A DNA stretch of 59,105 bases from Thermoplasmata archaeon (GTDB lineage Archaea; Thermoplasmatota; Thermoplasmata; Thermoplasmatales; ARK-15): assembly GCA_049965455.1 (NCBI GenBank), contig JBMFWH010000004.1, positions 1-59,105 of the forward strand. Direction: 5' to 3'. Positions 9 to 42,356 of this stretch are shown one piece after another. The stretch's first letter is position 1, and each line of letters opens with the position of its first letter. Made by a program: the position numbers and the translations under genes. The notes beneath the pieces are model-generated. The model was given only the letters and a program-made list of their open reading frames with translations, was not told the origin of the DNA and made no database searches.

Positions 9-785
9 ATGATAACTTTAGATAATGTATCCATTAGCTATGGAAAGAGTATTGTAATAAAAAATCTTAATGCAAAAATTGAGGACGGTTCTAAATGGTT
101 CATTATAGGGCCAAATGGGTCTGGTAAGTCCACATTCCTAAAATCATTGATAGGACTAGTGAATTATAAGGGTACTATAAAAATAAACGGTAGTGATTTA
201 AGATCAGTTAAGAAGATTAATACCAGTACTAATGTAAAAGAGGCGGTGAATATTTCAAGTTATCTGACAGTTTCTGAGTTTATTAAGTTCCATACTGAAA
301 TTAGGGGGTATGAGTATTCTAAAGCTATAAATATGTTAGAGGAACTAAAAATGTCGGAAATTCTGCATTTTAAAATTGGCAAGTTATCCACAGGGCAAGA
401 AAAAATGGCATATAATATAGCAGCAATTGCTACAAACTCAGATCTTGTAATTCTGGATGAACCTTTTGAAACTGTTGATCCTTGGAGAGTAGAGATACTT
501 TCTAATATTATTAAAGAGAACGTAAAATCATATATTATAGTAAGTCATATAATTGACAATTTATCTATATCAAAAATTTTTAATGATACTCTTTTGTTAA
601 TATTTTTTAGAGGTAATATATTTGGTCCAATCGGGAAAATTGAGGATTCAATAAACCTCTATGTAAAAATCGGATCTAGCAATAATAGTATTTTAAATTA
701 TGAGACCGATATGGGGGAAATATCAATTTTAAGAGATAAAGAAGAAGGTAGTGTCCCATTATATAAGATGGGTGATATATTATGA
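9..785 (+). CDS. ABC transporter ATP-binding protein of the RiPP cluster
   Basis: Walker A GPNGSGKS, signature LSTGQ, Walker B LVILDEP, H-loop VSH; overlaps the next gene (ATGA). Confidence 0.9.
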   Translation: MITLDNVSISYGKSIVIKNLNAKIEDGSKWFIIGPNGSGKSTFLKSLIGLVNYKGTIKINGSDLRSVKKINTSTNVKEAVNISSYLTVSEFIKFHTEIRGYEYSKAINMLEELKMSEILHFKIGKLSTGQEKMAYNIAAIATNSDLVILDEPFETVDPWRVEILSNIIKENVKSYIIVSHIIDNLSISKIFNDTLLLIFFRGNIFGPIGKIEDSINLYVKIGSSNNSILNYETDMGEISILRDKEEGSVPLYKMGDIL

Positions 786-1597
786 AAAGCATAGTCAGTC
801 AACTAACGAAACTTGAGTTCAAATCGATTTTTCGTAATAAACACAATATAATGTGGGGAATTGGGTACATTGTAATCTGGATTTTTATTTATAATTTTGC
901 ATTTCCTGCCCCTCCTCAGGGATATAAGGTAGAATATCTTGCTTCTTATGTTTCCTTTGTAGTATTGCTAGCTGGGAGTATAGCAGTAACCACTACTGCA
1001 TATAGGGTTGCAAATGATGCATTGCCACATATTTATTTATATAGAAGCACAAATGCTAGTTTATATGTCCTTATAATATCGATTCTAGTTCCGGTGTTTA
1101 TATTCGGGGTTATGATCTCTACCCTATCCTTCATTGTTGGATATTTAGTATTTGGATATTCATATGGCATATTTCCAGCTGTGAATATAACAATTCTTTT
1201 AATAGCCTTGATTGAAGTGACTTTTTTTTACATTTCTTTTGGTAGTTTTATCAGTTACATATTATTAAATTTAAAAAGTATAAAACTTATCAGATATATC
1301 ACAATGATTCCCCTGATTTTAGTTTTGGGCCTAATCCTAGGGTTACAGGTTACGAGATCACCTACTCTCGAACTATTATATATCTCTCCTTTTAACGCAA
1401 TATATTCTGCATTTGAATTATCGATAACTGGTTCTTCCAGTAAACTGTTTAATAACCTTGCAATCAAAAATTTTTACCTCTTACTATCTCCAATTTTGTG
1501 GGCAGTCATACTGCTAATATTATCCATTGTTTTTTACGGTATATATTACCTATCCTCTGCTAAAAATGAATTTAAGCTTGAAGATCTCTACGGGTAG
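782..1597 (+). CDS. ABC-2 type permease (putative RiPP exporter)
   Basis: About 6 hydrophobic segments; translationally coupled to the ATPase. Confidence 0.8.
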   Translation: MKSIVSQLTKLEFKSIFRNKHNIMWGIGYIVIWIFIYNFAFPAPPQGYKVEYLASYVSFVVLLAGSIAVTTTAYRVANDALPHIYLYRSTNASLYVLIISILVPVFIFGVMISTLSFIVGYLVFGYSYGIFPAVNITILLIALIEVTFFYISFGSFISYILLNLKSIKLIRYITMIPLILVLGLILGLQVTRSPTLELLYISPFNAIYSAFELSITGSSSKLFNNLAIKNFYLLLSPILWAVILLILSIVFYGIYYLSSAKNEFKLEDLYG

Positions 1598-1612
1598 AAG
1601 GGGTGTAAAAAT

Positions 1613-2530
1613 ATGTTAATAACAAAAAAACAACAGATCTCTCTTTTAAATTTTAATGATTTAAATCCCATATCTTTAGATCGTGACACAAGAATAAATG
1701 AAGGATTATTGCCAATAAACATTAATGAATATCATAATAGATTTTTCAATAAATATGACATTGCGGAACTCTATCACGAAAACAGTAAATTATATCGGAG
1801 TACAGATAGTAATATTGCCTTATCTATTGCACAACTAAAGACTGACCCTGCTTTACTGAGCCAATATTTAATAACCCCAACATATGATACAATATATTCG
1901 ATTGACACCCATGGAATAGTACTAGATGGTAAGGATAAAAGCTTGCGAGATTGCATATTTGGCCGTAAATCAATAAGAAATTATACAGCCAAAGAAATAG
2001 AGGATAAAATATTATTTTCAATACTTAATCTATCTGCCGGGAAAACACGCGAAGAAAGTATTAAGTTTCATGATCAAATACAAAAAATCAGATTCAGGGC
2101 AATACCATCAGGTGGGGCACTATATCCCGTAGATATTTTTATACTATTAAAAAATGTTAGAAACATTGAAAATGGGATATACTGGTATAATCCAAACAAC
2201 TATATTTTGAATCTCCTAACCAAGGATCAAGATAGGATGGATATGCTGGATAAAGCCATGATTGATCAGAATATCTCAAGAGATTATTTTGCACTTTTTG
2301 TCCTTGTTGGAAACTTTTGGAGATCTAGAGTAAAATATGGCCCAAGAGCATATAGATTTGTTTTATTAGAGGCTGGTCATTTGGCTCAGAATATACTTTT
2401 ATCACATGTTTATTATGATCTTGGATCAGTGCCTTTGCAGGCATTTATCGATGATGAAGTTAGTAGAGCCTTATTGATAGATGGGGTGGATATTGCGCCC
2501 TTATATGTCATTGCAGGAGGTACCTATTAA
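1613..2530 (+). CDS. SagB/ThcOx-type FMN-dependent azoline dehydrogenase
   Basis: RKSIR, PSGGALYP, RSRVKYGPRAYR (Lys-Tyr motif), LEAGHLAQN; adjacent to YcaO. Confidence 0.9.
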   Translation: MLITKKQQISLLNFNDLNPISLDRDTRINEGLLPININEYHNRFFNKYDIAELYHENSKLYRSTDSNIALSIAQLKTDPALLSQYLITPTYDTIYSIDTHGIVLDGKDKSLRDCIFGRKSIRNYTAKEIEDKILFSILNLSAGKTREESIKFHDQIQKIRFRAIPSGGALYPVDIFILLKNVRNIENGIYWYNPNNYILNLLTKDQDRMDMLDKAMIDQNISRDYFALFVLVGNFWRSRVKYGPRAYRFVLLEAGHLAQNILLSHVYYDLGSVPLQAFIDDEVSRALLIDGVDIAPLYVIAGGTY

Positions 2531-3616
2531 ATGAAGTATGATAGCAAAAGCTTTTACGACAAGTATACCTTGAATGATAGTTTTTCGATCTTTTATATTT
2601 CAGATAATATTGTTGAGTTTAGATACGGTTTTTTGTCATATTATTCTATTACCTTGCAGGATCCATTGAATAGAGGGAGACTAAAGACTTTAATAGATAC
2701 GATCAAGAATAAATTGGCAATTGAGGAGATTTCGTCTAAATTTGAAGAAGATGAGTTCTTGGACTTGATAAATAAACTAGAATCTGCAAATATATTACTC
2801 ATAAATAGCAATACATCCACAATATTTGATAAGGTTTCAAGGTACATTCAACTGATCTCTGGAAAAACTTATTCGCCGCAAGAACTAAAAAATGCACTCA
2901 GTAAGAATATATATATATTAAACAATGGTGGATCGGGAGAGATCCTTAAAGAATTACTATTGCAACTAGGCTTTAATAATGTTTACCAATTTATGATAAC
3001 CCATAATAAAAATATGGATTCAAGCATAAACCTTACAACTATGAAAGAGAAACTTAAAGATGCTGATATTTTATTATGCATTCTTGATTATTTTGATCCT
3101 ATTCTCCCAAGGATAATAAATGAGTTTGCAATAGAAGAAAACAAGAAATGGGTTTTATCAGCTATTGATGGGATTAATATATTTATTGGCCCTACGTTCA
3201 TACCAAAAGAGACTGCTTGCTATGAATGCATGCAAAATAGGCTTATAGCAAATCAATCGGATTCAGAAATATTTAGTAGGGTATTACCAAATATTATGAA
3301 TGGAAACTGGATCTCTGGTAAAAATTTAATGCCGGTCACATATTCTTATTTAATGGCCTCTATAGCCGCTCAAGAAGCAATGAACTTATTGATTTTAAAT
3401 CAACCAATGCTGATTAACAGATTGCTAATTGTAAATACACAAAATTTTTCATTTTCTATTCAAAAAATACTAAAACTTCCGCGATGTAATGTTTGTGGAG
3501 CGAGAGTTTCTCCAAAACCAATATATCTCTCTATGAGTGAAATCCTTTCGCTCAATGAAAATACGGAATCTGCTTCTGAGCCCTTATTTTTAAAAATAAA
3601 TAAGAATGTGGAATAG
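2531..3616 (+). CDS. SagC-like E1/ThiF-type leader-peptide-binding cyclodehydratase partner
   Basis: GPTFIPKETACYEC and LKLPRCNVCG Zn motifs; N-terminal region compatible with an RRE. Confidence 0.85.
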   Translation: MKYDSKSFYDKYTLNDSFSIFYISDNIVEFRYGFLSYYSITLQDPLNRGRLKTLIDTIKNKLAIEEISSKFEEDEFLDLINKLESANILLINSNTSTIFDKVSRYIQLISGKTYSPQELKNALSKNIYILNNGGSGEILKELLLQLGFNNVYQFMITHNKNMDSSINLTTMKEKLKDADILLCILDYFDPILPRIINEFAIEENKKWVLSAIDGINIFIGPTFIPKETACYECMQNRLIANQSDSEIFSRVLPNIMNGNWISGKNLMPVTYSYLMASIAAQEAMNLLILNQPMLINRLLIVNTQNFSFSIQKILKLPRCNVCGARVSPKPIYLSMSEILSLNENTESASEPLFLKINKNVE

Positions 3617-3629
3617 TGATTGAAGTAAT

Positions 3630-4919
3630 ATGATTGGGTATAGAGTTTTTAAAAGCCCACTTACGGATCAAATACTTAGTCTTTATGGCAACTATACTGG
3701 TATAGCTAAAAGTTTAGGAGCAAACAGTAATGAACTGCCATCATGTACCTATTCTGATATATCTATTGAAGAATGCAATCTTAATGCAATAATGCATACA
3801 AAACATAAAATAAACTTACGCCCCGCATCACTGGACAAAACTATCGAAAAAGCAATACTAAAAGGATTCTCTGAACTTGCGGAAAGGTACTGCCTATTTA
3901 TGTACCCATTTGCATACCCAGATATTCTAACAAAAGGTACATATAAGGGTATCGCACAAAATGGGATTCCACTATCCTTATCCTATGTTAATTTATGGGA
4001 TAACTCTAATAATAAATTTAAGAATTACTGGGCAGAAGGGGTAATATCAAGTTTAAAGTCAGATGATGAGATTATGTGGATTGAGGGGGAGTCAATTACT
4101 AAAAATATAAAAGTATACATCCCGGCACAAATCATTTTTTTAAGTACGAGCTCTTTATTCAATGAAAAATTGTACTGGCTTGGAACCAGCTCTGGAACTG
4201 CATCACACACAAATAGGAATGAGGCAATAATCTCTTCTGTCCTAGAACTTGTTGAGCGGGATAGTATAATGAAATATTTCTACACTAATATCACACCAAT
4301 AGAAGTATCTCCTTTTGGTGAGTCAAAAAAATTATTAAATGAAATTGGTGAAAGTAGATTGTTCAGGTTTTATTTTTTACCAAACGAATTCAAAATACCT
4401 GTCTTTGTTACAGTTTCGCTATCAAGAGATAAAAAGAAGCCTTATGCGGTATTTGGTTCAGGGTCAGGATTAAATCCAGATAGTGCGTTGAAAAAGTCAT
4501 TAATGGAGTCTTTACAAGGCATATCACTTGTAACATATTATACAATAGTAAATGATATCAAGAATAACAAAAAATTTCTGGATCTGGATTCTGGGCCAGT
4601 TTTATATGGAGACCCTAAAAACTCAGATTTTTTAGAGCAATATTTAACATCAACTTCACTTGATTTCGAAAGTGTGTTTGAGTACAATGAATATTCATTG
4701 TATGGTTTGGAAAACATCCTTGAAAGAGTTAAAAAAAATGATTATGATCTTTTTCTTTTTGATATAACCACGGAAGATATTAAAGAGGTGGGGTTAACTG
4801 TCATCAGAGCATATATTCCTCAATTGATCCCATTTTCTGTACCGGCATTGCCGCCAGTTTCACATCCTAAATTTGATGATGTGAAAAATATTACCCCCTT
4901 TGTCCATCCATTTCCATAA
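3630..4919 (+). CDS. YcaO (SagD-like) cyclodehydratase
   Basis: SELAERY, TSSGTASH, ELVERD, ALKKSLME and Pro-rich C-terminus PFVHPFP typical of azoline-forming YcaO. Confidence 0.92.
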   Translation: MIGYRVFKSPLTDQILSLYGNYTGIAKSLGANSNELPSCTYSDISIEECNLNAIMHTKHKINLRPASLDKTIEKAILKGFSELAERYCLFMYPFAYPDILTKGTYKGIAQNGIPLSLSYVNLWDNSNNKFKNYWAEGVISSLKSDDEIMWIEGESITKNIKVYIPAQIIFLSTSSLFNEKLYWLGTSSGTASHTNRNEAIISSVLELVERDSIMKYFYTNITPIEVSPFGESKKLLNEIGESRLFRFYFLPNEFKIPVFVTVSLSRDKKKPYAVFGSGSGLNPDSALKKSLMESLQGISLVTYYTIVNDIKNNKKFLDLDSGPVLYGDPKNSDFLEQYLTSTSLDFESVFEYNEYSLYGLENILERVKKNDYDLFLFDITTEDIKEVGLTVIRAYIPQLIPFSVPALPPVSHPKFDDVKNITPFVHPFP

Positions 4920-5237: not shown

Positions 5238-5711
5238 ATGGAAAGTATACAAGAGCTATTAGAAATGGCTATAAGGGCAGAGATAGATTCTGAGAAGATA
5301 TATTCAGATCTCTCAAAAATGGTTAAGAATTATCTATTAAAAGAGAAACTGGAATTTTTGGCGAAAGAGGAAAATGGGCATAAAAAGATGTTAGAGCACA
5401 TATTTAGTATCAAGTATCCTAACAAGGCGCCGGAGATACCGGAGAGCACGAAAGTACCACTGCCACATATCGTGATAAGAGAAAAAGAGCCCCTTTCAGA
5501 TATATTTAGTCAGGCAATGGACGCAGAAGAGAAAACATCCAGGTTTTATACGGATCTCTCAAAGAGACTGAAAGGAGAAGAATCCAATATCCTAAGCTAT
5601 ATGAGCAATGTAGAAATGTCACATTATTATCTATTAAAAAGTGAACGAGAACTATTATTAAATTTCGAAAACTATGATCAATATTCTGAAATGATGCATA
5701 TAGGGCCATAA
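5238..5711 (+). CDS. Ferritin-like/rubrerythrin-family protein, paralog 1
   Basis: Two E...ExxH half-sites (AIRAE/EENGH, AMDAE/VEMSH); no rubredoxin domain. Confidence 0.85.
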   Translation: MESIQELLEMAIRAEIDSEKIYSDLSKMVKNYLLKEKLEFLAKEENGHKKMLEHIFSIKYPNKAPEIPESTKVPLPHIVIREKEPLSDIFSQAMDAEEKTSRFYTDLSKRLKGEESNILSYMSNVEMSHYYLLKSERELLLNFENYDQYSEMMHIGP

Positions 5712-5791
5712 TATTTTATTTTTTAAATTATTTATTCATTTTTAGAAAACTATTTATTTTAAATGCTATTAATCTATTAGCAGGTGATATT

Positions 5792-6268
5792 ATGACTGAG
5801 ATTGAAGAGATGTTAGAAATGGCTATAAGGGCAGAGATAGATTCTGAGAAAATATATCTGCAGTTATCACAGATGGCTAAAAATAAATTATTGAAAGAGA
5901 AACTGGAATTTTTGGCAAAAGAGGAAAGCAAGCATAAGGAACTCTTAGAGAACATATTTTCCATAAAGTTTCAGGATAGAGAGCTGGAGATCCCACCTAG
6001 CACGAAAGTACCATTACCCCAGATAGAGATACACAAAAATGAGCCATTATATGATATATTAACGCAGGCTATGGATGCAGAAGAAAAAACTGCAATATTC
6101 TACCAGGATCTGTCTAAAAAACTAAAAGATGGCGAAGCTGCAAGCTTGATGCAATATTTAAGCTCGGTTGAAAGGTCACATTATTATCTGTTAGAAAGCG
6201 AGAAAGAGCTATTGATGCAGATGGAAAAATACAGTGGCAATTACAAATATTATAGCCTTAACCCTTAA
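5792..6268 (+). CDS. Ferritin-like/rubrerythrin-family protein, paralog 2
   Basis: AIRAE/EESKH and AMDAE/VERSH; near-identical 5' DNA to paralog 1. Confidence 0.85.
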   Translation: MTEIEEMLEMAIRAEIDSEKIYLQLSQMAKNKLLKEKLEFLAKEESKHKELLENIFSIKFQDRELEIPPSTKVPLPQIEIHKNEPLYDILTQAMDAEEKTAIFYQDLSKKLKDGEAASLMQYLSSVERSHYYLLESEKELLMQMEKYSGNYKYYSLNP

Positions 6269-26279: not shown

Positions 26280-26630
26280 AAAAATAATTTTTTTCAAAGA
26301 AGATTAAAAATCTCGTCGAACTTAGTTTCTATTTTTCGCTTACCTTTTTGTTATATCTCCCTTGTTTTTATTTATTATCGCGGTGGTGAGTTTGTCCAAT
26401 TAACTACAAGAAGGCTTTCACAGATCAATAATGTGAGCGAAAATTATATTACTGTACAACTTAAAGCTCCCGCAAGGCACTATTTGAACCATGGGAAACG
26501 AGATATCAGTAATAGGCTTGGTGCATAAAGCTTATGAATCAACCAGATAATTGCTTTCAAAGTTGTATTTTAAACACAGACGATATCGTAAGTTAATGTT
26601 TATTTTTAGAGAATAATGAATAGATTTATC

Positions 26631-27326
26631 TTACTTGAAAAAGTGATCTATAATCTTATTGTGATCAAATGCTAGTACTGGAATCTGCTCTCTAGATAAT
26701 AATAATACCGAATCTGCATCATCTCCAGCTTTTAAAGACCCCCCAACTGCCTCCAGAACATATACTGCGGATACAACATGCCCTCTAGGGTCACGGTATG
26801 GATCTGAATAAACGTTAAGAAGTCGTTCAACCCTGGCCTTTATTCCCGTTTCTTCAAAGATCTCTCTCACCACCGCAGACTCTAAGGTTTCTCCATATTC
26901 TACGAACCCACCTGGAAGCGCCAGATAACCTTTAAAAGGCTCATTTTTTCTCTTTACGAGTGTTATGTTATCATTAATAATAAGTATTCCATCTACAGCG
27001 ACTGATGGTAATTTGTATGGTCGTGTTGAATAATATGTGAAAATGTTGAAGTACTTCTCATACTCCTCAATTAAACTTAGTCCATGCGCAGTTAACCTCG
27101 TGTTCCCTCTTCCAATCCCACCTCTTTCAGCGATTACAACTTTCTGCTGATATGCGGTTTCTATCTTTTTTATTACACCCCAGGCATAACGATATGACAT
27201 TTTTAGTGAATCTGCAGCGGCTTTTAAGTTTTTTAGCTCATCTATCTTTTTTAAAAGTGCATAAGAGCCCTCTCCTAAAACATACCTATCATGGTGCTCT
27301 AGCCAGATCTTAAATTTTATATTCAT
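26631..27326 (-). CDS. ModE-type winged-helix domain fused to a Nudix hydrolase
   Basis: N-term AAADSLKMSYRYAWG...RGG.G.G.T.LT; Nudix box GGFVEYGETLESAVVREIFEETGI; LAFDH. Confidence 0.85.
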   Translation of the reverse strand: MNIKFKIWLEHHDRYVLGEGSYALLKKIDELKNLKAAADSLKMSYRYAWGVIKKIETAYQQKVVIAERGGIGRGNTRLTAHGLSLIEEYEKYFNIFTYYSTRPYKLPSVAVDGILIINDNITLVKRKNEPFKGYLALPGGFVEYGETLESAVVREIFEETGIKARVERLLNVYSDPYRDPRGHVVSAVYVLEAVGGSLKAGDDADSVLLLSREQIPVLAFDHNKIIDHFFK

Positions 27327-27421
27327 AGTCTACCAGAGGAATATATAAAAATTGCATATTTATAACTTTTTTAAAATCAAGATCAAATATTTTTAATAAT
27401 TGTTTTCGATATCTAGGTGAA

Positions 27422-28354
27422 ATGAATATTAGATTATCGCTGGCATCTGCTATATACTTGGGTTTCAAGCCAGGAAACTTGAATTTTCCAGTTTCTACGA
27501 TATACATAATGTTTGGTGAAAAATGCTATTCAAATTGCTCTTTCTGTGCACAAGCATACTCTCAGGCCAAGGAAAATATGCTTTCAAGAGTTCCATGGTT
27601 CTCATACGATGCAGATCTGGTGATAGGGAGATTAAGAGTGAGCAAGTTAGCTAGAATCTGTGTCCAGACCCTGGATTATCCCGGCGTAGAAAAAGAGATT
27701 CTTGTATTTTTGGGCGGGGTGAAAAAGTTGAACATGCCAGTTTCAATATCGATAACCCCAATATCTAATGCCTCAATGACCATTTTCAGGGATTATGCAG
27801 ACACGATCAGTTTTGCTCTTGATGCTGCCACGCCAGCACTGTTCGAAAAATACAAAGGATATATGGTGGGTAATAGGTTTACATGGGAAGACCACTGGAA
27901 CGCACTTTTAAATGCCAGAAAAATATTTGAACACGTGAACACACACGTTATAGTAGGACTCGGGGAAAATGATCGAGACTTGATAGAGTTGATGCTGAGG
28001 CTAAAAGATTCAAAAATCAGCATTGCACTTTTCGCTTATACTCCGATCAACAAAAGTTTGAATCTAAAGGCACCGGATCTGAACAGGTACAGGAAGGTGC
28101 AGCTGGCACGGTACCTGATAGAAAATTACGATGCAAAGATCCAGAATTTTGAGTTTGAAAATAACATGCTAAAAAACATCTTATTTGAAAACATTGACAA
28201 AATAATTGAGGACGGAATTGCATTTATGACCTCTGGCTGCAAAGGTTGTAACAGGCCTTACTATAATGAAAGACCCGGTAAAGCAGTATATAATATCCCA
28301 TACCATCCTTCAGGTGAAGAAATAAAAGCAATTAAAAAAGAGCTAAAACCATAA
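27422..28354 (+). CDS. Radical SAM protein, LipS2-like (biotin-synthase-related)
   Basis: CYSNCSFC and C-terminal TSGCKGCNRP, resembling the TxGCPxC(N/D)RP motif of Thermococcus LipS2. Confidence 0.75.
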   Translation: MNIRLSLASAIYLGFKPGNLNFPVSTIYIMFGEKCYSNCSFCAQAYSQAKENMLSRVPWFSYDADLVIGRLRVSKLARICVQTLDYPGVEKEILVFLGGVKKLNMPVSISITPISNASMTIFRDYADTISFALDAATPALFEKYKGYMVGNRFTWEDHWNALLNARKIFEHVNTHVIVGLGENDRDLIELMLRLKDSKISIALFAYTPINKSLNLKAPDLNRYRKVQLARYLIENYDAKIQNFEFENNMLKNILFENIDKIIEDGIAFMTSGCKGCNRPYYNERPGKAVYNIPYHPSGEEIKAIKKELKP

Positions 28355-28380
28355 ATACCTCAAAATGCATTATGTGATTC

Positions 28381-29160
28381 ATGCTAAGCATCTCAGTTTT
28401 TCAGCCTTCGGGATCTATGAAATACAAGAAAAATCTGCAATTCTTAATGGAACAGATTAAAGCTCAGGACTCTAAAATGCTTATATTTCCAGAGCTTTTT
28501 ATTACAGGATACATGATCCGCGATGAGCTGTTCAAATATCATTTGAATCAGGAAGTCGAGGATTTTAAAGCCATAAGGAGCATGGCTGAAAAGTATGATA
28601 AAACAGTAATATTCGGTTATCCTGAAGAACATAATGGCCAGTATTATAATTCTGCAGCATTGATCTCCAAAGATGTTGTTGCCACGGTGAGGAAAATATA
28701 CCTTCCCAATTTCGGGCCATTTGAAGAAAAGCTATATTTTACAGATTCAAATGAAATAAATGTTTATGATACTGAATTTGGAAAGATAGGCATACAGATT
28801 TGCTATGATATATTCTTCCCTGAAATATCCAAGATTCAGGCATTAAAAGGTGCGGATATCCTGGTCAATATTTCTGCAAGCCCGATCACATCAAGATTTT
28901 ATTTCGAGAACCTGATGGTTTCACGGGCTGTTGAAAACTCGGTGTTTTATATTTACAACAATTGGGCAGGAACACAGAGAAGTCTCGTTTACTGGGGCGG
29001 GTCAGCAATAATCGGGCCCAAGGGTGAGATACTTGCTAAAGCGCCATATTTCGAGCCATATGTATTAAAATATCAGATTGATCTTAGAGACCTCAATATT
29101 GCAAGAAGGCTCAGGCCTACTATAAGAGATACAAAATTGGAGCTGTTCAGGAACATATAG
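28381..29160 (+). CDS. Carbon-nitrogen hydrolase (nitrilase superfamily)
   Basis: FPEL, RKIYLP, ICYD catalytic triad. Confidence 0.92.
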   Translation: MLSISVFQPSGSMKYKKNLQFLMEQIKAQDSKMLIFPELFITGYMIRDELFKYHLNQEVEDFKAIRSMAEKYDKTVIFGYPEEHNGQYYNSAALISKDVVATVRKIYLPNFGPFEEKLYFTDSNEINVYDTEFGKIGIQICYDIFFPEISKIQALKGADILVNISASPITSRFYFENLMVSRAVENSVFYIYNNWAGTQRSLVYWGGSAIIGPKGEILAKAPYFEPYVLKYQIDLRDLNIARRLRPTIRDTKLELFRNI

Positions 29161-29403
29161 GTTACATTTCTCATACATACTGTGTTTGAGACAGTATTTT
29201 TACTGAATGTGCATCAAATCCTTTCATGCGAAATAAAAAAAATGATCTGCGTATCAAGCCTACATTTTAAAATGCAATGGATCAATCATTTGAAAAATAT
29301 CTATTTGATCGTTAATATTTAATTTTTGTAATACATAAAATTAATATAGCAAATTGAAAATATATAAAAGTAATTAGATAAATGAAAGCAGGATGATTAT
29401 TGT

Positions 29404-30777
29404 ATGAGAATAAACCTTTTGAGCGTGAAAGGAGGAGTAGGAAAATCCACTCTCACCATGGCACTGGCCAAAGCTCTTGCGCTTAAAAACAAGAATGTCT
29501 TGTTAATAGATAGGGATCTGACTGGCTATCTATCTTCTATGATGGGAATAGAAGGCAAGGGACTGTTAGAGAGGTTTATGGACAATATAGATTATGTAAG
29601 TGACATATACAAGGAGATAAAGGTAGAAAACAGCATTATTGGGATCTTAAAGCTCTACGGAGGACTCAGCGAGAAAGACGTACTGAAATTCATGAGCGTT
29701 ACAGAAACTGAGCTAGAGAAGCTGGAGATTATTTACAAATACTTCTTGTTGAATAGAAGTTTTGATTATTATATCTTAGATAATGCTCCATATATAACAA
29801 ATGAAAGCATAATAGTAAAAAATGAAACGAAACTTTTCAGGGACATTTTTCCAGACATGGAAAACGTAAGGGTATATGTTTCGAATTTTTCAATGAGTTC
29901 TGTGAATACTACCGAACAATATGCGATAAAAGTGGAAAGCGAGTATAAGATAGGAAAAGCTTTAGGCGTAATAATAAACATGGTACCATCCATACCTAAC
30001 GAGCTCGATAGAGCAAGGGAGGTTGCAGAGAAACTTTGCTCAAGAATCAACGCAAGAATCTCGATAGTGATTCCTGTGCTGGAAAGTCTTATTAATTTTA
30101 CGGGATCTATCCAGGATCTTGCATTGCCGCCAGAAATCACGAGGCTGGCAGATATTCTAATAAGTGGAGTGCAGGATAAACAGACAATTATAAACAGCAA
30201 TAGCCTTGTAAACGTCAAGAATCTGGCAATGGTGAATGGTGTTGTACTGGTAGAGGGACCTCCTGGGCTGGGAAAACTGAACATTGCAAAATCGATTGTT
30301 AAAGAGGCTAGTAATAATGGAAGAGACATAATTTTCTTTAAGACCAGCGAAATGTTCTCGATCAAAAAAGATGAAAATGTGGAAGTTTATGAAGTAACGC
30401 TGATGCCAAAGTATTCTGAGTTAAGGTTTACAGCAAACTCGATCCTTGATATTTTAAAGCTTTCAAAAAACATCAGCACCGAGCTGATAAAAAACATAGC
30501 CAGTAAATACAAGGAATGCAAGAGCCCAGTCATAATAATATACAATGCCAACAACCTTAATCCAGTATCCAGTTGTTGTGACATAAATGCATTAAGGGAA
30601 GAGTTCTGGAATACCTTTTTAAACCAGATATTACACAATGAAAAAAACGCATTGATCTTACTGTTCTGCGATGATATATCTGAAGATTGCAAGGTTCTGA
30701 AATCACTGGCTAACTATACTGTGGAGATAAGCGACATTGAAAGCCTGAAATACAAGATTTACAACGGTGCAATATGA
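29404..30777 (+). CDS. MinD/ParA-family ATPase fused to a degenerate RecA/KaiC-like P-loop domain
   Basis: Deviant Walker A KGGVGKST, LLIDRD, YILDNAP; second P-loop VLVEGPPGLGKL. Confidence 0.8.
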   Translation: MRINLLSVKGGVGKSTLTMALAKALALKNKNVLLIDRDLTGYLSSMMGIEGKGLLERFMDNIDYVSDIYKEIKVENSIIGILKLYGGLSEKDVLKFMSVTETELEKLEIIYKYFLLNRSFDYYILDNAPYITNESIIVKNETKLFRDIFPDMENVRVYVSNFSMSSVNTTEQYAIKVESEYKIGKALGVIINMVPSIPNELDRAREVAEKLCSRINARISIVIPVLESLINFTGSIQDLALPPEITRLADILISGVQDKQTIINSNSLVNVKNLAMVNGVVLVEGPPGLGKLNIAKSIVKEASNNGRDIIFFKTSEMFSIKKDENVEVYEVTLMPKYSELRFTANSILDILKLSKNISTELIKNIASKYKECKSPVIIIYNANNLNPVSSCCDINALREEFWNTFLNQILHNEKNALILLFCDDISEDCKVLKSLANYTVEISDIESLKYKIYNGAI

Positions 30778-32267
30778 GAGTTGCAAATGTAGCGTTTCTA
30801 TTATCGATATTTATTATTCCGGGGATATTCTCGTATTTTACATGCAATAGTTTGCCTCTGATCTGGCTAAATTATGGAATATGGTTTTCAATGACCGCTG
30901 GATTTTACGTGTTTGTAAATTTTGCATTGCTTGCCTCAAAAGCTAGAAAAAGCAATGATTTATTACTGGCAACGCCCCCAACATTAAGAGCATGCGCATT
31001 TGTAGTTTCTTACAACGAGAACCCTGAGCTAGTAAAAGGCACCTTGTTTTCAGTAAAATCTGCGCTTAACGATGGCGAGGCAATCTTCTTGCTCGATGAT
31101 TCAACAGACAAGAATATTGTGGGGCAAATGCGCGCCTTTTGCAAGAGTAATGATATTAATTATCTGCACAGGGAAAACAGAAAAGGATTTAAAGCGGGTG
31201 CTATAAATGAAGCATTGGGCAAAATATATGGAAAATATGACCTGGTGGCAATATTCGATGCGGATCAGAGACCCTTGCCTGCCTTTTTCCACGAAACGAT
31301 CCCGTATTTCAACGACACATCCGTGGCACTGGTCCAGGTTCCGCAAACTTATACTGAGTTGCAATCCCAAATTTCAGAAGGGGCATTATATCAGCAAGAG
31401 CCATTTTTAAGAATATTGATGAAAGGTAGATCCGATCGCTCTGCGTTTTCAATTGGTTCAGGATCCGTTTTCAGGGTCTCTGCTCTAATGGATGTTGGCG
31501 GGTTTGTAGAATCGAGCATCACTGAGGATGTGGCAACTTCGTTGAGATTGCAAGAAAGAGGCTATAAATCTATATATGTGGATATGCCGCTGATATGGTA
31601 CGGAGAACCCCCGAAAGATCTGGGCGCATACATGAGCCAGCAAGGAAGATGGTCTTTTGGTTACTTTCAAATAACAAAGGATATCATGACCAGAAAAATA
31701 TCCTTCTCCCAGTTTTTCGATTACATCACGGGCACTCTTTACTGGCTCAAAGAAGGAATAATCACGGTCTTTGAGCTCTTAGGGCCTATGGTCTTTCTCA
31801 TTTTCAAGGTTCCGTTCTTGAAGCTAGATCCTGTTATTTATGCACTCGCATATGTTCCGTATCTTGTGGCATCGATGCTTCTTTATGCGCTTTTGATCCG
31901 AAAAATAAATTACGGAATAAGTGGCTTCTATTTGCATCAGGTTGTTGAATATCTAGCTTTCCCCGCAATAGTCATTTCATTTATATACTGGCTCGCCGGT
32001 CAAAAAAGACCATTCAAAGTGACCCCGAAAGAGGTGGTGTTGAAACATACACTGAAATTTGTAATTCCTGTTATTGTAATATTGGCATTACTTGTACTGA
32101 GCGACGTAATGGGCATTTTATGGTACCTGTCTGGGAGCACTTTGAATCTGAAGCTTGCAATAATAATGAACCTGTTCTGGGCTTCATATCAAATTCCGTT
32201 TTTGGTAGGAGGAGTTGTGATCTCGCTGAACGTTGATAATAAAGAAAAAGAAAACCTGATAAAATGA
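30774..32267 (+). CDS. Processive GT2 glycosyltransferase, cellulose synthase (BcsA)-like, lacking PilZ
   Basis: DDS, FKAG, DAD, TED, QQGRW and FKVTPK motifs plus flanking TM helices. Confidence 0.85.
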   Translation: MRVANVAFLLSIFIIPGIFSYFTCNSLPLIWLNYGIWFSMTAGFYVFVNFALLASKARKSNDLLLATPPTLRACAFVVSYNENPELVKGTLFSVKSALNDGEAIFLLDDSTDKNIVGQMRAFCKSNDINYLHRENRKGFKAGAINEALGKIYGKYDLVAIFDADQRPLPAFFHETIPYFNDTSVALVQVPQTYTELQSQISEGALYQQEPFLRILMKGRSDRSAFSIGSGSVFRVSALMDVGGFVESSITEDVATSLRLQERGYKSIYVDMPLIWYGEPPKDLGAYMSQQGRWSFGYFQITKDIMTRKISFSQFFDYITGTLYWLKEGIITVFELLGPMVFLIFKVPFLKLDPVIYALAYVPYLVASMLLYALLIRKINYGISGFYLHQVVEYLAFPAIVISFIYWLAGQKRPFKVTPKEVVLKHTLKFVIPVIVILALLVLSDVMGILWYLSGSTLNLKLAIIMNLFWASYQIPFLVGGVVISLNVDNKEKENLIK

Positions 32268-32394
32268 TCGTCTTTGTAATACGATATTATTCTTAAAAAG
32301 TCTGGTTAAAGTTGATAAGTTAGGAAAATCAAGGAATATAATATAGACAAAATTTAAATCTGTATTTTCAATATACCTTAACAGTGATCTGATT

Positions 32395-33675
32395 ATGTCT
32401 GATAAGTTTGATCTGATAGTAGTTGGTGGAGGCCCGGCAGGATTAGCTGCCGCTTACACTGCTGCAAAAGCGGGCTTGAACACTTTTGTTGCTGAACGCG
32501 GCGATAATTCAGGCTCTAAGAACATGTTTGGCGGTGTACTTTATGTGGACACGCTTAGAAAGATGATACCTGAGTTCTGGAAAGAAGCTCCTGTAGAAAG
32601 GCCATTATCCCAGCGAAAAATCACGTTTTTAACGGACGAATCATACGTTTCTATAGACTACAAGAACCAGAAGTTCAGAGAGCCGCCATACAACGGTTTT
32701 TCAGTGTTGAGAGCCAAATTTGATAAGTGGTTTTCTCAGAAGGTGGAAGAGGCAGGTGCATTGATAGGCACCGGCATCAAAGTTGATGATCTCGTATATG
32801 ATGGAGATAGAGTGAGCGGCATAAAGTCAGAGTCTGACGTAGTTGAAGGGGACATGGTTATTGCCGCAGATGGGGTGATATCATTAATTTCACAGAAGGC
32901 AGGGTTGAAGACAGTGCCAAAGCCACAAGATGTAGGGCTAGGTATGAAAGAGATCATAGAGCTGCCAGAAGGGGAAATTGATAAAAGATTCGGATTGAAG
33001 AAAGGTGAAGGTGTGGAAGAGCTGATACTTGGGGCGCCAACGCGTAACCTGCGCGGTGGTGGATTTGTATACACCAATAAAAACACCGTATCACTAGGGC
33101 TTATTGTATCACTGGAAGCCATGCGAAAAAGCGAGTATTATGCATATGATCTGATCGAGAAATTCAGGGCTAATTCTTATATCAGCGAGTTGGTAGAAGG
33201 TGGCACGATAAAAGAGTATTCGGCGCATGTCATACCTGAACGCGGGCTAGACATGATCCCGAAGCTATACCGGGCCGGTATGATGGTCGTTGGTGATGCT
33301 GCTGGATTTGTCAATTCATCAGGCATATACCTGAACGGTGTAGACCTGGCAATATTGTCTGGAATACTGGCAGCACAAAATGCGATCAGAGCACACAAAG
33401 AAAAGGATTTTTCAGCAAAGAGCATGATGCAGTATGAAACGATGTTGAAGGACAGCGTGATAATGAAGGATTTCTACACATATAGGAAGGCGCCTAAAGT
33501 AGTTGAAAATGAGCGCTTTTATAAAGAGTATCCAGCAATGATAAATAACATCATGCGAAACATAATCTTATCTGACGGAATGCCCAAAAAGAAGATCATG
33601 CAGCTTTTAAAACAGGAAAATGTGCCTTTGACAACTTTATTGATGGACGCATTGAGTGGAGGTAGAGCTCTATGA
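32395..33675 (+). CDS. fixC: FixC-like FAD-dependent ETF:quinone oxidoreductase
   Basis: GGGPAG, GSKNMFGG, EYSAH, VGDAAG; coupled to FixX. Confidence 0.85.
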   Translation: MSDKFDLIVVGGGPAGLAAAYTAAKAGLNTFVAERGDNSGSKNMFGGVLYVDTLRKMIPEFWKEAPVERPLSQRKITFLTDESYVSIDYKNQKFREPPYNGFSVLRAKFDKWFSQKVEEAGALIGTGIKVDDLVYDGDRVSGIKSESDVVEGDMVIAADGVISLISQKAGLKTVPKPQDVGLGMKEIIELPEGEIDKRFGLKKGEGVEELILGAPTRNLRGGGFVYTNKNTVSLGLIVSLEAMRKSEYYAYDLIEKFRANSYISELVEGGTIKEYSAHVIPERGLDMIPKLYRAGMMVVGDAAGFVNSSGIYLNGVDLAILSGILAAQNAIRAHKEKDFSAKSMMQYETMLKDSVIMKDFYTYRKAPKVVENERFYKEYPAMINNIMRNIILSDGMPKKKIMQLLKQENVPLTTLLMDALSGGRAL

Positions 33676-33953
33676 GTGAACTTAGCATTGATGACAGACT
33701 GGCATTGATAAAATACAAGGTAGATTCCAAGCCACATATCATACTCAAGGACCCAAGAATATGCGATGCTTGCCAGGGCAAGTTCTGCGTACATTCTTGT
33801 CCTGCAAAATGCTATATTATAGAAAACAACCAGGTTGTATTCCATTACGAAGACTGCGTTGAATGCGGTTCTTGCTTCATAGTATGCGACAGCAAGGCTA
33901 TAGACTGGAACTATCCCAGAGGCTCTTTCGGAGTCACTTACAAATATGGATAA
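33672..33953 (+). CDS. fixX: FixX-like ferredoxin
   Basis: CDAC..FC..SCPA.CY, CVECGSC, WNYPRG.FGV.YKYG. Confidence 0.88.
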   Translation: MSELSIDDRLALIKYKVDSKPHIILKDPRICDACQGKFCVHSCPAKCYIIENNQVVFHYEDCVECGSCFIVCDSKAIDWNYPRGSFGVTYKYG

Positions 33954-33956
33954 AAG

Positions 33957-34445
33957 TCATTCCTTGGTAAGTTCATAATATATATGACTAACTTCAGGCA
34001 AAATAAGCATTGTGACAGCAGTGGTTATGGCTGCCGGTGAGCCTGGCACTACAAACACTATCTTTTTATTTATCAATCCTGCAGAAGCCCTGCTCATCAT
34101 TGCTGCACTGCCAATCTCTTTGTAACTTATCATTCTAAATAACTCCCCGAACCCTTCTATATTTTTTGTAAAGTATGGCTTAATGGCCTCTATGGTAAGG
34201 TCAAATTTGCTCAATCCAGTTCCCCCGTTTACTATCAAGAAATCACAGTTTGCCTCTAATATCGAGGCTCTCAACATTGAAACGTCATCTTTCACAACCT
34301 TGTAATATGCAAGCTTATGCAACTTTGAGACCAGCTCTATTGCAAGCTTTCCAGATTCGTCAGTATCTTCAGTCCTTGTGCTGCTTGCCGTGATCACGCC
34401 AAAAGTCAGCACGTAGCTATGATCTTTATGGTCTTTCACGCTCAT
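33957..34445 (-). CDS. moaB: MoaB/MogA molybdopterin adenylyltransferase
   Basis: DESG, NGGTG, GFGELFR, SRA, PGSP. Confidence 0.88.
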   Translation of the reverse strand: MSVKDHKDHSYVLTFGVITASSTRTEDTDESGKLAIELVSKLHKLAYYKVVKDDVSMLRASILEANCDFLIVNGGTGLSKFDLTIEAIKPYFTKNIEGFGELFRMISYKEIGSAAMMSRASAGLINKKIVFVVPGSPAAITTAVTMLILPEVSHIYYELTKE

Positions 34446-39809: not shown

Positions 39810-42356
39810 TTAAAGTATAACGCTGTTTCCACTCAGCGTTACGTTTATTGATACATTCGCTCCATTCACTGTTATTGTTGCAGGCACTGATGAATATATA
39901 CCACTCGGGGTAAGTATCAGTAGATAGTATGCGCCATTTGTTACATGGAAATTCAAAGTATTGGATGTGTTAATTGCAGAGTATAGAAATGGATGATTCT
40001 GGCTGTTTGAGTATAGAAACGCCATCACTGAAGTGTTGGAAAGCCCGGATATGGTGATTGTTACATTGTAATATACTGGAACTATTGGACTGTAATCTCC
40101 TCCAATTGCTATAAGTCCATAAAAGTTAAATGGAGTTGGCATGCCAGATGTGTAATAGCTCCAGAAGTTGCCAGACTGTGTGGCCTGATTCATAATGTTT
40201 CCAGATAATTGGTATCCATTCACGGTGTTGACTATACTGGCAGGTTCAGGAGTAATGTTCCAGGCATCAGTGTAGTTTGCGGAATATCCGTTATAGATAT
40301 TATAATGCGGACTGTATGCAGGGATCGTGATGTTGAAGTAGTTATTGTAAATAGTGTTGCCGGAACTGTACATGCTCAATCCTGTCGCATATCCCAGATA
40401 TGGCATGTCTGCTGCTGTTATAGGTACTGGATATGAGTTGAACTCATTACCCCAAATAACGTTGTTAGATCCACCATACACAAGCATTGAGCTGCCCCAG
40501 TCATAAAAGTTATTGCCTGCTACTAGATCATTGGTACTGTTCCATAATATTATGTTTGCCACAGGGAAATCATACATGAAAAGATTATATGAGAACCAGC
40601 CTGTAACGTAATTGGCATGATATATGGAAACGTGAGATGTATTATATAATTGAATTTGAAGGTAGTTGTATGTAGGGAGTTTGAAGTAATTTGCAATGTT
40701 TGATGCAGTAGCGCCGAAGTTGATGAAGAACGCTGGTGGGCTGTTGACAGATATGTAAACGTTAGTGTTCAGGATAAGCAATCCCGGAAACACAGGAAAC
40801 GCGTAATCATTCAACTGGCTGAACAATGGATTTAACGAACCGTACTGATTGTTTTCAAGAACATATGGATTATTCATAGTACCGTTACCAGCCATTGAAA
40901 GAGCAGCGACCTGGGCATTGTCAAATGCAAACAGAGGTGTGTATATTCCCATTGCCATGTTCTTTACCATATTTACATTTAATACCGAAGAACTGCTGAA
41001 AGTCAGGCTTACAGGATTATAGTTACTGAGCAGTATCTCTGCACTGTAAGTGCCTGTAGGCAGCTCATATGACACCGCCCCCGAGGTACCTATCGCAGCC
41101 CACTGTGCGGTTGAAGCGTTAAATTTCGGGCCGGGACTTATGAACATGAACGCATTTGAGGGAGTCACAGTTCCTGAGATCTTGATATTGCCAGATCCAG
41201 ATGACACGCCCCATAAAGGTGCCAGGATGGATGGTCCGGTAGTAAGCACTGCCGTAGGAGTGACACCGTTCCATGATGATGATACACCGAGGCTTGTTTC
41301 TCCGGTATCTGTTCCAAAGTTATATGCAGATGGTACTGCAGAATATCCTGTAGATGACAGATAACTCAGGTGCATAGTGGCATTTGCATTAAACACGTTT
41401 GTCGTGCTTCCGCCGCCAGGACCGCCGAGCATTATTTCAGCATCATAAAGCAAATAGCCATTTGGTGTAACCTCATTACCATTAACCTGATAATAAGCAG
41501 GTGCAGTCTTGTAACCTGAAGGCATGCCATATGAGGAGTTAAACAATACTTCATCAAAAGATCCAGCGATAGGAGCTTGGTTCTGCTGTATTAAAGTGTA
41601 ATTGAAAAATACAGCATCCTGGTTATCTATAACTGTGCTGTTTAGGAATAGATTTATGGTGAATGGGAACTCAACGTTGCTAAATGAGGGGCCTATTGCG
41701 TAATAGTATGTGGGTGGAACTGGAATGCCATCATAGCTGTACAATGAGTTGGGAGTGAACAAGAACTGGTTGCTTGAAAAGTTCCAGATATTGTCTATTA
41801 ACTCTAATGTATGAGTTCTTACCGAATAAAACACTACATTCTGATTCCAGAAGACATAACTGTTGTTACCGAACAGCGTGACGTTTCTGAGTACTGTATT
41901 TAACTGAAAAGTAAGGCTATAAGGGCCATCATCATCCAGATAAAACACGTTAAGATTATTAACAGTGATAGATCCTTCAAAGCTGGTAGTGTTTAACACT
42001 GTCCCTGTCAAAACACCACTATTGTTCATCAATCCAAAATAACCCAATCCCATTGGCGCTGGAGCTGAGCCGTATAGTGGAGATATAGTATTACCATTTT
42101 TCACATATTTAGCGTTAAAATTTGGTAAATATGCGTATTTAGCAGGAATACCATTCTCTTTTAATGTACTTAGCACCTTCTGGGTCATTGTCGATCCTTG
42201 TGCGTTTGATGCTTGGTAGGTCTGTGCATGGCTTGGTGCAGCCGTAGCGTTTGCAGACGATACCAAAAAACCAGAACTCAAAAAGACGACGACTACTGCT
42301 ATTGACAGTAGAACTTTCAATATATTTGCCTTTTTTCTATTTGTTATGTTACCCAT
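39810..42356 (-). CDS. Thermopsin (peptidase A5) family secreted protease with C-terminal beta-helix-like and extra domains
   Basis: Signal peptide, PAPMG, QLNTVL, FWNQNV, DNIWN, YDAE...GGPGGG, GTDTGE. Confidence 0.88.
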   Translation of the reverse strand: MGNITNRKKANILKVLLSIAVVVVFLSSGFLVSSANATAAPSHAQTYQASNAQGSTMTQKVLSTLKENGIPAKYAYLPNFNAKYVKNGNTISPLYGSAPAPMGLGYFGLMNNSGVLTGTVLNTTSFEGSITVNNLNVFYLDDDGPYSLTFQLNTVLRNVTLFGNNSYVFWNQNVVFYSVRTHTLELIDNIWNFSSNQFLFTPNSLYSYDGIPVPPTYYYAIGPSFSNVEFPFTINLFLNSTVIDNQDAVFFNYTLIQQNQAPIAGSFDEVLFNSSYGMPSGYKTAPAYYQVNGNEVTPNGYLLYDAEIMLGGPGGGSTTNVFNANATMHLSYLSSTGYSAVPSAYNFGTDTGETSLGVSSSWNGVTPTAVLTTGPSILAPLWGVSSGSGNIKISGTVTPSNAFMFISPGPKFNASTAQWAAIGTSGAVSYELPTGTYSAEILLSNYNPVSLTFSSSSVLNVNMVKNMAMGIYTPLFAFDNAQVAALSMAGNGTMNNPYVLENNQYGSLNPLFSQLNDYAFPVFPGLLILNTNVYISVNSPPAFFINFGATASNIANYFKLPTYNYLQIQLYNTSHVSIYHANYVTGWFSYNLFMYDFPVANIILWNSTNDLVAGNNFYDWGSSMLVYGGSNNVIWGNEFNSYPVPITAADMPYLGYATGLSMYSSGNTIYNNYFNITIPAYSPHYNIYNGYSANYTDAWNITPEPASIVNTVNGYQLSGNIMNQATQSGNFWSYYTSGMPTPFNFYGLIAIGGDYSPIVPVYYNVTITISGLSNTSVMAFLYSNSQNHPFLYSAINTSNTLNFHVTNGAYYLLILTPSGIYSSVPATITVNGANVSINVTLSGNSVIL

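Follow-up and report, generated by a model that had tools for sequence, protein, structure and literature searches.

How might an archaeon control a BcsA-type exopolysaccharide synthase that lacks the regulatory domain of its bacterial counterpart? In bacterial BcsA, a PilZ domain lets cyclic di-GMP (c-di-GMP) open the gating loop. To our knowledge, this c-di-GMP/PilZ logic is missing in most archaea, and the on/off control of archaeal exopolysaccharide and biofilm-matrix synthesis is largely unknown. The question is raised by two genes of a heat-loving Thermoplasmata archaeon (ARK-15; assembly GCA_049965455.1, contig JBMFWH010000004.1, positions 1–59,105), a 59,105-nt stretch analyzed in full and referred to here as the window. 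Gene 1 (P0001; 29404–30777, + strand) encodes a 457-aa, two-domain cytoplasmic partner protein, and gene 2 (P0002; 30774–32267, +) a 497-aa predicted processive synthase of glycosyltransferase family 2 (GT2) and BcsA type, without PilZ. As read from the sequence, stop and start codons of the two open reading frames (ORFs) overlap in an ATGA (30774–30777, +), the arrangement from which an earlier note on this DNA described them as translationally coupled. Our favored interpretation, to which we assign a probability of about 0.6, is that the pair forms a self-contained, horizontally mobile cassette for a synthase-dependent extracellular beta-glycan, with a KaiC-like protein as regulatory or assembly subunit.

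By its sequence relationships, gene 2 is a BcsA-type GT2. Among the GT2 families that it matched, the best curated model was TIGR03030 (CelA, cellulose synthase catalytic subunit; 190.5 bits, profile positions 135–569 of 714), and a search of all PDB sequences returned six matches at E ≤ 0.001, every one a bacterial cellulose synthase. The best of these, BcsA 7lby_A (E = 6.9e-34), aligned residues 276–693 to P0002 residues 74–490, and BLASTP against Escherichia coli K-12 BcsA gave 26% identity over 446 columns (E = 1e-37). The GT2 catalytic motifs (31005–31652, +), i.e., YNE (YNEN, residues 80–83), DDS (DDSTD, 108–112), KAG (140–142), DAD (162–164), TED (250–252), and QQGRW (289–293), are invariant in A4, a 26-row alignment of archaeal synthase homologues. 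Further downstream, FKVTPK (residues 414–419; 32013–32030, +) aligns to the gating-loop motif FxVTxK of BcsA (FNVTAK in E. coli), and its F414, V416, T417, and K419 are invariant in the same alignment. The complete processive motif set and gating loop that the earlier note had claimed for gene 2 could thus all be located and aligned to BcsA.

Overall, P0002 and bacterial BcsA (with BcsB; 4hg6, 7lby) have in common the GT2 core, interface helices, transmembrane channel region, and FxVTxK loop. Unlike BcsA, P0002 has just two N-terminal membrane segments, followed by about five C-terminal ones in a hydropathy scan, and it ends where the PilZ region of BcsA begins, the E. coli alignment stopping at BcsA residue 702 of 872. 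Two hydrophobic segments follow FKVTPK (residues 420–455 and 467–485), and the protein stops 12 residues after the second. Since this last membrane segment occupies residues 467–485 of 497, there is no room for a PilZ domain, and P0002 has no PilZ match in Pfam, as expected from the earlier note. Across the genome (1.53 Mb, 128 contigs, 94.74% complete), searches that gave matches in control genomes found no PilZ, no GGDEF, and no BcsB (PF03170; 0 matches, with the control matched in E. coli and Bacillus subtilis), which agrees, at that level of completeness, with the c-di-GMP independence suggested earlier.

The same data bear on whether the enzyme exports a polymer at all. It could instead be a non-processive or short-chain GT2 acting on a lipid, a lipid-linked precursor, or an envelope protein, with gene 1 aiding its folding or membrane insertion: the GT2 family is very broad, the CelA equivalog cut-off was missed widely (190.5 vs. 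699.1 bits), and no BcsB-like or other export partner was found. Indeed, by Pfam, none of the 44 (14 + 30) large window ORFs is a further polysaccharide gene, in line with the reported absence of bcsB, bcsZ, and bcsC nearby, although the genome was not searched for bcsZ (GH8) or bcsC. However, QQGRW, FxVTxK, and the post-catalytic membrane region mark processive synthase-translocases; both motifs are invariant in the family, and the match to BcsA covers the gating loop as well as the entire membrane region after the catalytic part. We therefore consider a non-processive enzyme quite unlikely. For a processive synthase, beta-glucan is the leading guess for the product, BcsA being the nearest relative, and cellulose itself falls slightly short of even odds.

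Turning to gene 1, Pfam places a ParA/MinD-type (SIMIBI) ATPase domain in residues 1–262 (29404–30189, +), with three families above their cut-offs over residues 3–196 (CbiA, 47.4 bits vs. 25.4; AAA_31, 44 vs. 27; ParA, 40.7 vs. 27.1). Its deviant Walker A, KGGVGKST, is intact (residues 9–16; 29428–29451, +), YYILDNAP lies at residues 122–129, and the description of this half as an intact MinD/ParA ATPase holds. From predicted fold and synteny, the second half (residues 263–457; 30190–30774, +) is a putative inactivated KaiC/RecA-like domain. Its P-loop, GPPGLGKL (residues 285–292; 30256–30279, +), is degenerate, with Leu at the place of the Mg-binding Ser/Thr, and VIIIYNANN begins at residue 376. 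Pfam returned only weak AAA-type matches for this region (AAA, 27.7 bits; nSTAND3, 28.3 bits) and no match to KaiC (PF06745) at E ≤ 0.01.

The predicted structure was more informative. An AlphaFold2 model of residues 263–457, built from a 42-row alignment, reached a predicted local distance difference test (pLDDT) score of 88.5 and a predicted template modeling (pTM) score of 0.87, and the full-length model (pLDDT 84.9, pTM 0.62) comprises two folded domains around a low-confidence linker (residues 265–269). Foldseek placed KaiC, RecA, RAD51 paralogues, and FlaH on top (E ~1e-7 to 4e-6), with KaiC 7s65_B as the best match (E = 1.7e-7). VIA-align ranked Elp4/5/6 first (4ejs_B; Z 14.8, root-mean-square deviation 3.3 Å, 159 residues), followed by Sso2452 (2w0m_A, Z 13.7), KaiC (8dba_A, Z 13.4), PH0284 (Z 13.3), and FlaH (Z 11.5–11.8); KaiC structures overall gave Z 13.4–14.7 over 165–177 residues, and a second structural comparison agreed with this ranking. 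The AAA+ assignment that Pfam would suggest was rejected, AAA+ chains scoring Z 10.5–10.9, i.e., about 4 Z under the RecA/KaiC chains. On this model, the second domain can be confidently assigned a RecA/KaiC-type fold with a decayed P-loop, so that both the label and the degenerate motifs given in the earlier note stand.

Next, we evaluated how consistently such a protein accompanies the synthase. Using a synthase alignment as query and one genome per species, we scored the best 80 of 183 confirmed loci, and called a partner when a hidden Markov model of the C-terminal domain matched an ORF at E ≤ 1e-3. A match was obtained in 33 of these 80 loci, always in a gene adjoining the synthase gene: 31 lie directly upstream on the same strand and two are divergent. 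Recurring in this way, the pair is more than a chance arrangement. The 4-nt overlap (gap −3) recurs at 15 of the 31 same-strand pairs, and also at L045 and L103 if measured to the start of the tblastn match; the remaining same-strand gaps range from −117 to +12 nt, save for L066 (383 nt). Partner-bearing loci occur in Thermoplasmatota (Thermoplasma, Ferroplasma, Aciduliprofundum), Thermoproteota (Sulfolobaceae, Desulfurococcales, Caldisphaera), Nitrososphaeria/Conexivisphaerales, Archaeoglobi, Methanocellales, and Micrarchaeota. Conservation of the neighborhood across archaea, which the earlier note had named as a check, is thus observed in several phyla. The partner gene was found in none of the 25 distant GT2 loci (L097–L122 without L103; 31–41% identity), which include Abditibacteriota, Chloroflexota, Methanoculleus, and ANME-1, i.e., bacteria and methanogens. 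When 400 genomes sampled evenly across the class were searched, the domain profile matched 23 genomes and the synthase 32 (E ≤ 1e-40), the two being adjacent by coordinates in nine.

What is constant in the partner is the KaiC-like domain. Against 1,835,955,588 representative proteins, its profile gave 44 matches at E ≤ 0.001, 24 at ≤ 1e-10, and five at ≤ 1e-30; the family has no Pfam entry of its own and no sequence match in the PDB (best E 0.039). With 44 profile matches in 1.84 billion proteins and nothing in the PDB, the partner family is, by sequence, a small orphan. In a separate alignment of 42 KaiC-like domains (A5), taken from the window, from 31 partners encoded at the loci, and from 10 short database matches, the second P-loop is a canonical Walker A in three, GxxxxG[KR]x in six, including the window, and absent in 33. 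Given a canonical Walker A in three of the 42 members, hydrolysis of nucleoside triphosphates by this domain appears dispensable. The sole (nearly) invariant residues of the family are F401 and W402 (P0001 numbering), which lie in an EEFWNTF motif (30598–30618, +).

The N-terminal part, by contrast, is variable. ParA fusions as in the window (422–475 aa) also occur at L043, L044, L045, L046, L049, and L057. Other partners combine the KaiC-like domain with a coiled-coil-like N-terminus (269–282 aa; Aciduliprofundum/Thermoplasmatales type), with about 140 helical N-terminal residues (305–307 aa; Nitrososphaeria), or with an AAA_15/AAA_21 ATPase (892 aa; Ferroplasma). Minimal partners of 181–187 aa are encoded in Archaeoglobi and Methanocellales, partners without a P-loop (205–230 aa) in Thermoplasma and Micrarchaeota, and the divergently transcribed ones (L047, L050) measure 414–418 aa. 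Even within the family to which the window genome belongs, four relatives carry, overlapping the synthase start, a 272–282-aa gene with a coiled-coil-like N-terminus and a homologue of the P0001 C-terminal domain, and no ParA. The conserved partner is the KaiC-like domain, and ParA is one of several alternative N-terminal add-ons. Of the dual-ATPase partner proposed in the earlier note, the conserved pairing with a KaiC-like domain was retained and ParA as a constant part was not, since it is absent in 27 of the 33 partner-bearing loci.

This distribution also weighs on the possibility that the ParA/MinD domain is the functional core, positioning or stabilizing the synthase as BcsQ would, and that the KaiC-like domain is a passive linker or oligomerization scaffold. 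In the window the ParA motifs are intact and the second P-loop is degenerate; among 42 aligned database members, ParA fusions are the commonest architecture (ParA-type Pfam domains in 17, AAA_15 in one); and the KaiC-like domain is closest in structure to Elp4/5/6, which forms a scaffold ring. Yet ParA is missing from most partner-bearing loci, all of which have the KaiC-like domain (as the search was built to require), and even in ParA-fused partners the ATPase motif can decay: KGGxG[KG]S is found in 14 of the 42 aligned family members, and in three of these 14 rows the P-loop lysine is replaced (KGGVGGS). We consider a ParA-centered partner unlikely. The KGGVGGS (Lys to Gly) proteins form a subclade of ParA-fused partners (P0144, P0145, P0164; L044:124–1548, L046:1522–2943) in which, judging from the motifs, both NTPase-like domains look inactive.

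Partner architecture also follows synthase phylogeny. In a maximum-likelihood tree of 49 synthases, i.e., the window and 48 loci with an ORF call of at least 450 aa, each architecture falls in one clade. The tree omits L045, L065, L074, L078, L080, L082, L083, L088, L094, L103, and L106, as well as 21 distant loci (L097, L099–L102, L105, L107–L112, L114–L122). The window GT2 belongs to a ParA-type clade with Thermoproteota (crenarchaeal) and Nitrososphaeria sequences (six rows; Shimodaira–Hasegawa-like approximate likelihood ratio test, 97), outside the coiled-coil clade of its own family. Forcing it into the latter costs 68.5 log-likelihood units (approximately unbiased test, p = 0.0011, for a group named after the tree was seen). 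Because of adjacency, translational overlap, taxonomic breadth, and congruent phylogeny, it is quite probable in our view that synthase and KaiC-like protein are functionally coupled.

The cassette is also absent from close relatives of its host. Among 40 relatives, the synthase was detected in 14, and the two same-genus genomes (98% and 96% complete) were not among these. In both same-genus genomes (G001, G002), the sequences flanking the cassette, window positions 26600–29164 and 32342–34000, are retained at 85–89% identity and lie ~112–135 bp apart. Since the flanks are intact and near-adjacent in both genomes, the segment in between (29165–32341, delimited by this flank comparison) is a 3.18-kb gain or loss comprising the two genes. 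The junction lies in an AT-rich spacer with no obvious repeats, and the GC content of the cassette (0.376) does not differ from that of the window (0.379).

Several observations weigh against the two-gene cassette as we read it. Among the 54 closer loci (L043–L096), 22 lack a partner at E ≤ 1e-3. Four of the 22 have less than 150 nt of upstream sequence; two show domain-level, sub-threshold matches in an overlapping upstream gene, encoding a vWA-containing protein at L063 (3.2e-4) and an 845-aa protein at L072 (2e-5); and seven, including one of the four short of upstream sequence (L082), encode long-form synthases of 665–696 aa with a ~170-aa C-terminal helical extension. Many loci come from related metagenome bins, several of them duplicating sampled genomes, so that the counts are not independent events. 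The KaiC-like domain is not synthase-exclusive, with paralogues also found away from any GT2. On the enzyme side, P0002 scores far below the CelA cut-off, and equally so for NF008558 (139.8 bits; cut-off 992), and the sugar and linkage of its product are not readable from sequence. Finally, contact between the two proteins is a prediction from their genes; a computed complex of the GT2 (A4) with the KaiC-like domain (A5) scored 0.00, the mark being 0.32, and speaks neither for nor against binding.

The long-form synthases (L064:6001–8007, L075:3097–5118, L082:111–2117, L086:5767–7857, L087:2561–4558, L093:1286–3328, L096:5983–8022) form a clade of their own on the synthase tree. Their extension is ExxH-rich with a conserved E...ExxH...E...DExxH spacing, matches Pfam Rubrerythrin below threshold (E 3e-4), and looks ferritin/rubrerythrin-like by these sequence features. 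A sub-threshold Rubrerythrin match (E 5e-3) was also obtained for the N-terminal ~140 aa of the 305-aa partners, but kinship between the two regions was rejected for now, the hhalign probability of 0.43% not being significant. At L095 (249–1352), which also belongs to the 22 loci and lies in a Nitrosotalea metagenome-assembled genome, a 367-aa protein combines an Mrr-type restriction endonuclease (Mrr_cat) with KaiC (PF06745, E 2.6e-40), and its gene precedes a more distant GT2 relative with a 4-nt overlap. We read the long-form extensions and this KaiC-family gene as related signs that a cytosolic module is needed.

How does the cassette compare with known systems? In E. coli, as described in PMC7439463, BcsQ is MinD-like, and the N-terminal domain of BcsE is predicted to be RecA-like in fold and probably cannot bind ATP. 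P0001 and these regulators both pair a MinD/ParA ATPase and a RecA-like domain of degenerate Walker A with a BcsA-type synthase; unlike the E. coli set (BcsQ, BcsR, BcsE), P0001 joins both parts in one polypeptide and no BcsR is present. The resemblance to a BcsQ–BcsE fusion drawn in the earlier note was not supported as homology. P0001 scored 34.9 bits for the BcsQ equivalog TIGR03371 (cut-off 157.85) and 17 bits for the BcsQ model NF007460 (cut-off 399), and Pfam CBP_BcsQ reached exactly its cut-off (21.3 bits) in a match limited to residues 3–37, i.e., the P-loop. The A5 profile showed no sequence relation to E. coli BcsE residues 1–217 (hhalign probability 0.39%), and P0001 had no Pfam match to the REC-GGDEF (GIL) module. 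We take the likeness as one of functional analogy.

Parallels are also found within archaea. KaiC-like and inactivated KaiC (iKaiC) domains have been proposed as archaeal signaling hubs (as cited in PMC5847659). Like Sso2452 (2w0m), PH0284 (2dr3), and FlaH/ArlH (4yds, 4wia), the P0001 domain is a single RecA/KaiC-type domain, and by analogy with iKaiC proteins it may serve a membrane machine as an accessory subunit whose ATPase motifs have decayed; unlike them, it belongs to a very small family of its own, mostly devoted to a GT2 synthase. The same source describes Methanobacteriaceae fusions of REC to a BcsA-like glycosyltransferase (MTH_548). By that description, these likewise place an archaeal BcsA-like enzyme under a non-PilZ, non-c-di-GMP regulatory module, but as a receiver domain fused to the enzyme rather than the separate KaiC-like protein seen here. 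Both the signaling-hub proposal and these fusions fit a cytosolic-regulator reading. The Elongator subcomplex Elp4/5/6 (4ejs, 4a8j; Z 14.8–14.9, root-mean-square deviation 3.0–3.3 Å, 157–159 residues) uses a RecA-like fold without conserved ATPase motifs as a scaffold, but it is a eukaryotic tRNA-modification complex with 12% identity to the KaiC-like domain, and the likeness is one of fold alone. Short archaeal BcsA-like genes have been noted in print (PMC10086821, PMC12350378). In a literature search that did not cover Makarova et al. 2017 on KaiC-like hubs, which may bear on novelty, neither the partner family nor a link between it and these genes was found described.

Taken together, these patterns suggest a working model. 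Gene 2 would build a polymer from a nucleotide sugar and pass the chain through a transmembrane channel of its own. Lacking PilZ, it would be inherited with a cytoplasmic subunit whose constant part is the inactivated KaiC/RecA-like domain, and this domain would dock onto the synthase at its cytosolic face and replace PilZ, as an obligate subunit for regulation or assembly. The variable N-terminal modules would supply lineage-specific input or organization, the ParA/MinD ATPase of the window adding ATP-dependent dimerization or positioning. The data establish how the two genes are built, their homologies and predicted fold, the decay of the P-loop, the conserved adjacency, the matching phylogeny, and where the cassette is present or absent; docking, the gating or assembly role, the contribution of ParA, and the identity of the product are parts of the model that we infer. 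More tentatively, and with the odds somewhat against it, archaea could control BcsA-type exopolysaccharide synthases through a KaiC-derived pseudo-ATPase subunit in the place of PilZ, and not through c-di-GMP. This pseudo-ATPase may act as an adaptor for lineage-specific heads, i.e., a ParA/MinD ATPase, an ABC-type ATPase, a coiled coil, vWA, or a ferritin-like bundle.

Alternatively, the cassette could belong to a conflict or defense-type system, in which the KaiC-like protein, with its swappable ATPase, nuclease, or vWA heads, would be the sensor and the synthase a surface-remodeling effector on attack. The cassette is patchy and laterally moved, one of the partner heads (AAA_15/AAA_21) matches models of AriA, PtuA, and GajA (E 1e-9 to 1e-11), and Mrr_cat–KaiC and vWA heads also occur. 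Most partners, however, have no enzymatic head at all, and PADLOC gave no match for P0002 and only short P-loop stretches for P0001. Furthermore, the cassette sits among housekeeping genes: RNA polymerase subunits, a NusA-like KH protein, a Nudix regulator, the lipoyl synthase LipS2, and a CN-hydrolase upstream, and FixC/FixX-like proteins, MoCF, HIT, and an amidohydrolase downstream. We consider a defense role very unlikely.

Read as a polysaccharide synthase with its KaiC-like subunit, the cassette is a variant form of synthase-dependent polysaccharide systems, and a compact one: of its two proteins, one has known enzymology and the other comes from an undescribed, KaiC-derived family. Its natural variants, which differ in their heads and in having or lacking a P-loop, represent ready-made experiments, and for structural studies and biotechnology the cassette offers a BcsA-type synthase that is both minimal and thermostable. 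If true, our reading would bring the control of a membrane polysaccharide synthase under the idea of archaeal KaiC-like signaling hubs. If, in addition, archaea do use a KaiC-derived pseudo-ATPase in the place of PilZ, a RecA-like regulatory partner could be an old and general trait of this synthase class, with the degenerate RecA-like N-terminal domain of bacterial BcsE as a parallel or a remnant.

Other features of the two genes and their relatives deserve mention. Gene 1 is preceded by an AT-rich 244-nt spacer, in which a TATA-like stretch (29360–29369, +), 35–44 nt upstream of the start, is a possible archaeal promoter by sequence. A search for sequencing runs that contain this DNA listed one DNA run, with a small share (0.11), and no RNA run. 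Within the KaiC-like domain, four cysteines (C391, C392, C422, and C429; 30568–30690, +; context SSCCD ... FCDD ... EDC) are conserved in the ParA-fused subfamily, C422 and C429 to at least 90% in the 24-row alignment A9. Other architectures have two cysteines or none, and those of P0001 are a possible metal or redox site. Among the KaiC-like paralogues, four of 421–453 aa with an unknown N-terminal half (L031:3883–5172, L040:3967–5232, L041:4753–6033, L032:3658–5019) each have a divergent Hsp70-like gene and a small phosphatase (HAD/PNK3P) as neighbors, and two others are 900-aa AAA_15 fusions (L030:4959–7661, L042:5521–8223). In P0097 and P0098 (442–447 aa), the first ~110 residues of a ParA-type partner continue in frame into the synthase, of which the C-terminal two thirds are present, starting at the QVPQxY region; from their sequences, these look like a deletion that fused two neighboring genes. 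A stand-alone 253-aa ParA of Acidianus (P0006/P0007) was considered as a split gene 1 and rejected as a paralogue in view of its position in G415. There, the closest stand-alone relative of the ParA domain (L123:4717–5478; G415:C12), 87% identical to Acidianus P0007, has an MMPL-family transporter on one side and a PMT_2 (GT-C) glycosyltransferase on the other, and 22 kb separate it from the cassette of the same genome.

Elsewhere in the window, the + strand genes lined up at 9–4919 are reminiscent of a cluster for peptide modification of the azoline type; in order, they encode an ABC ATPase, an unknown 271-aa ORF, a nitroreductase-family protein, a ThiF-like protein, and a YcaO cyclodehydratase. 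They are followed by two rubrerythrin genes in tandem (5238–6268, +), and an 848-aa acid protease of the thermopsin family is encoded on the opposite strand (39810–42356, −).

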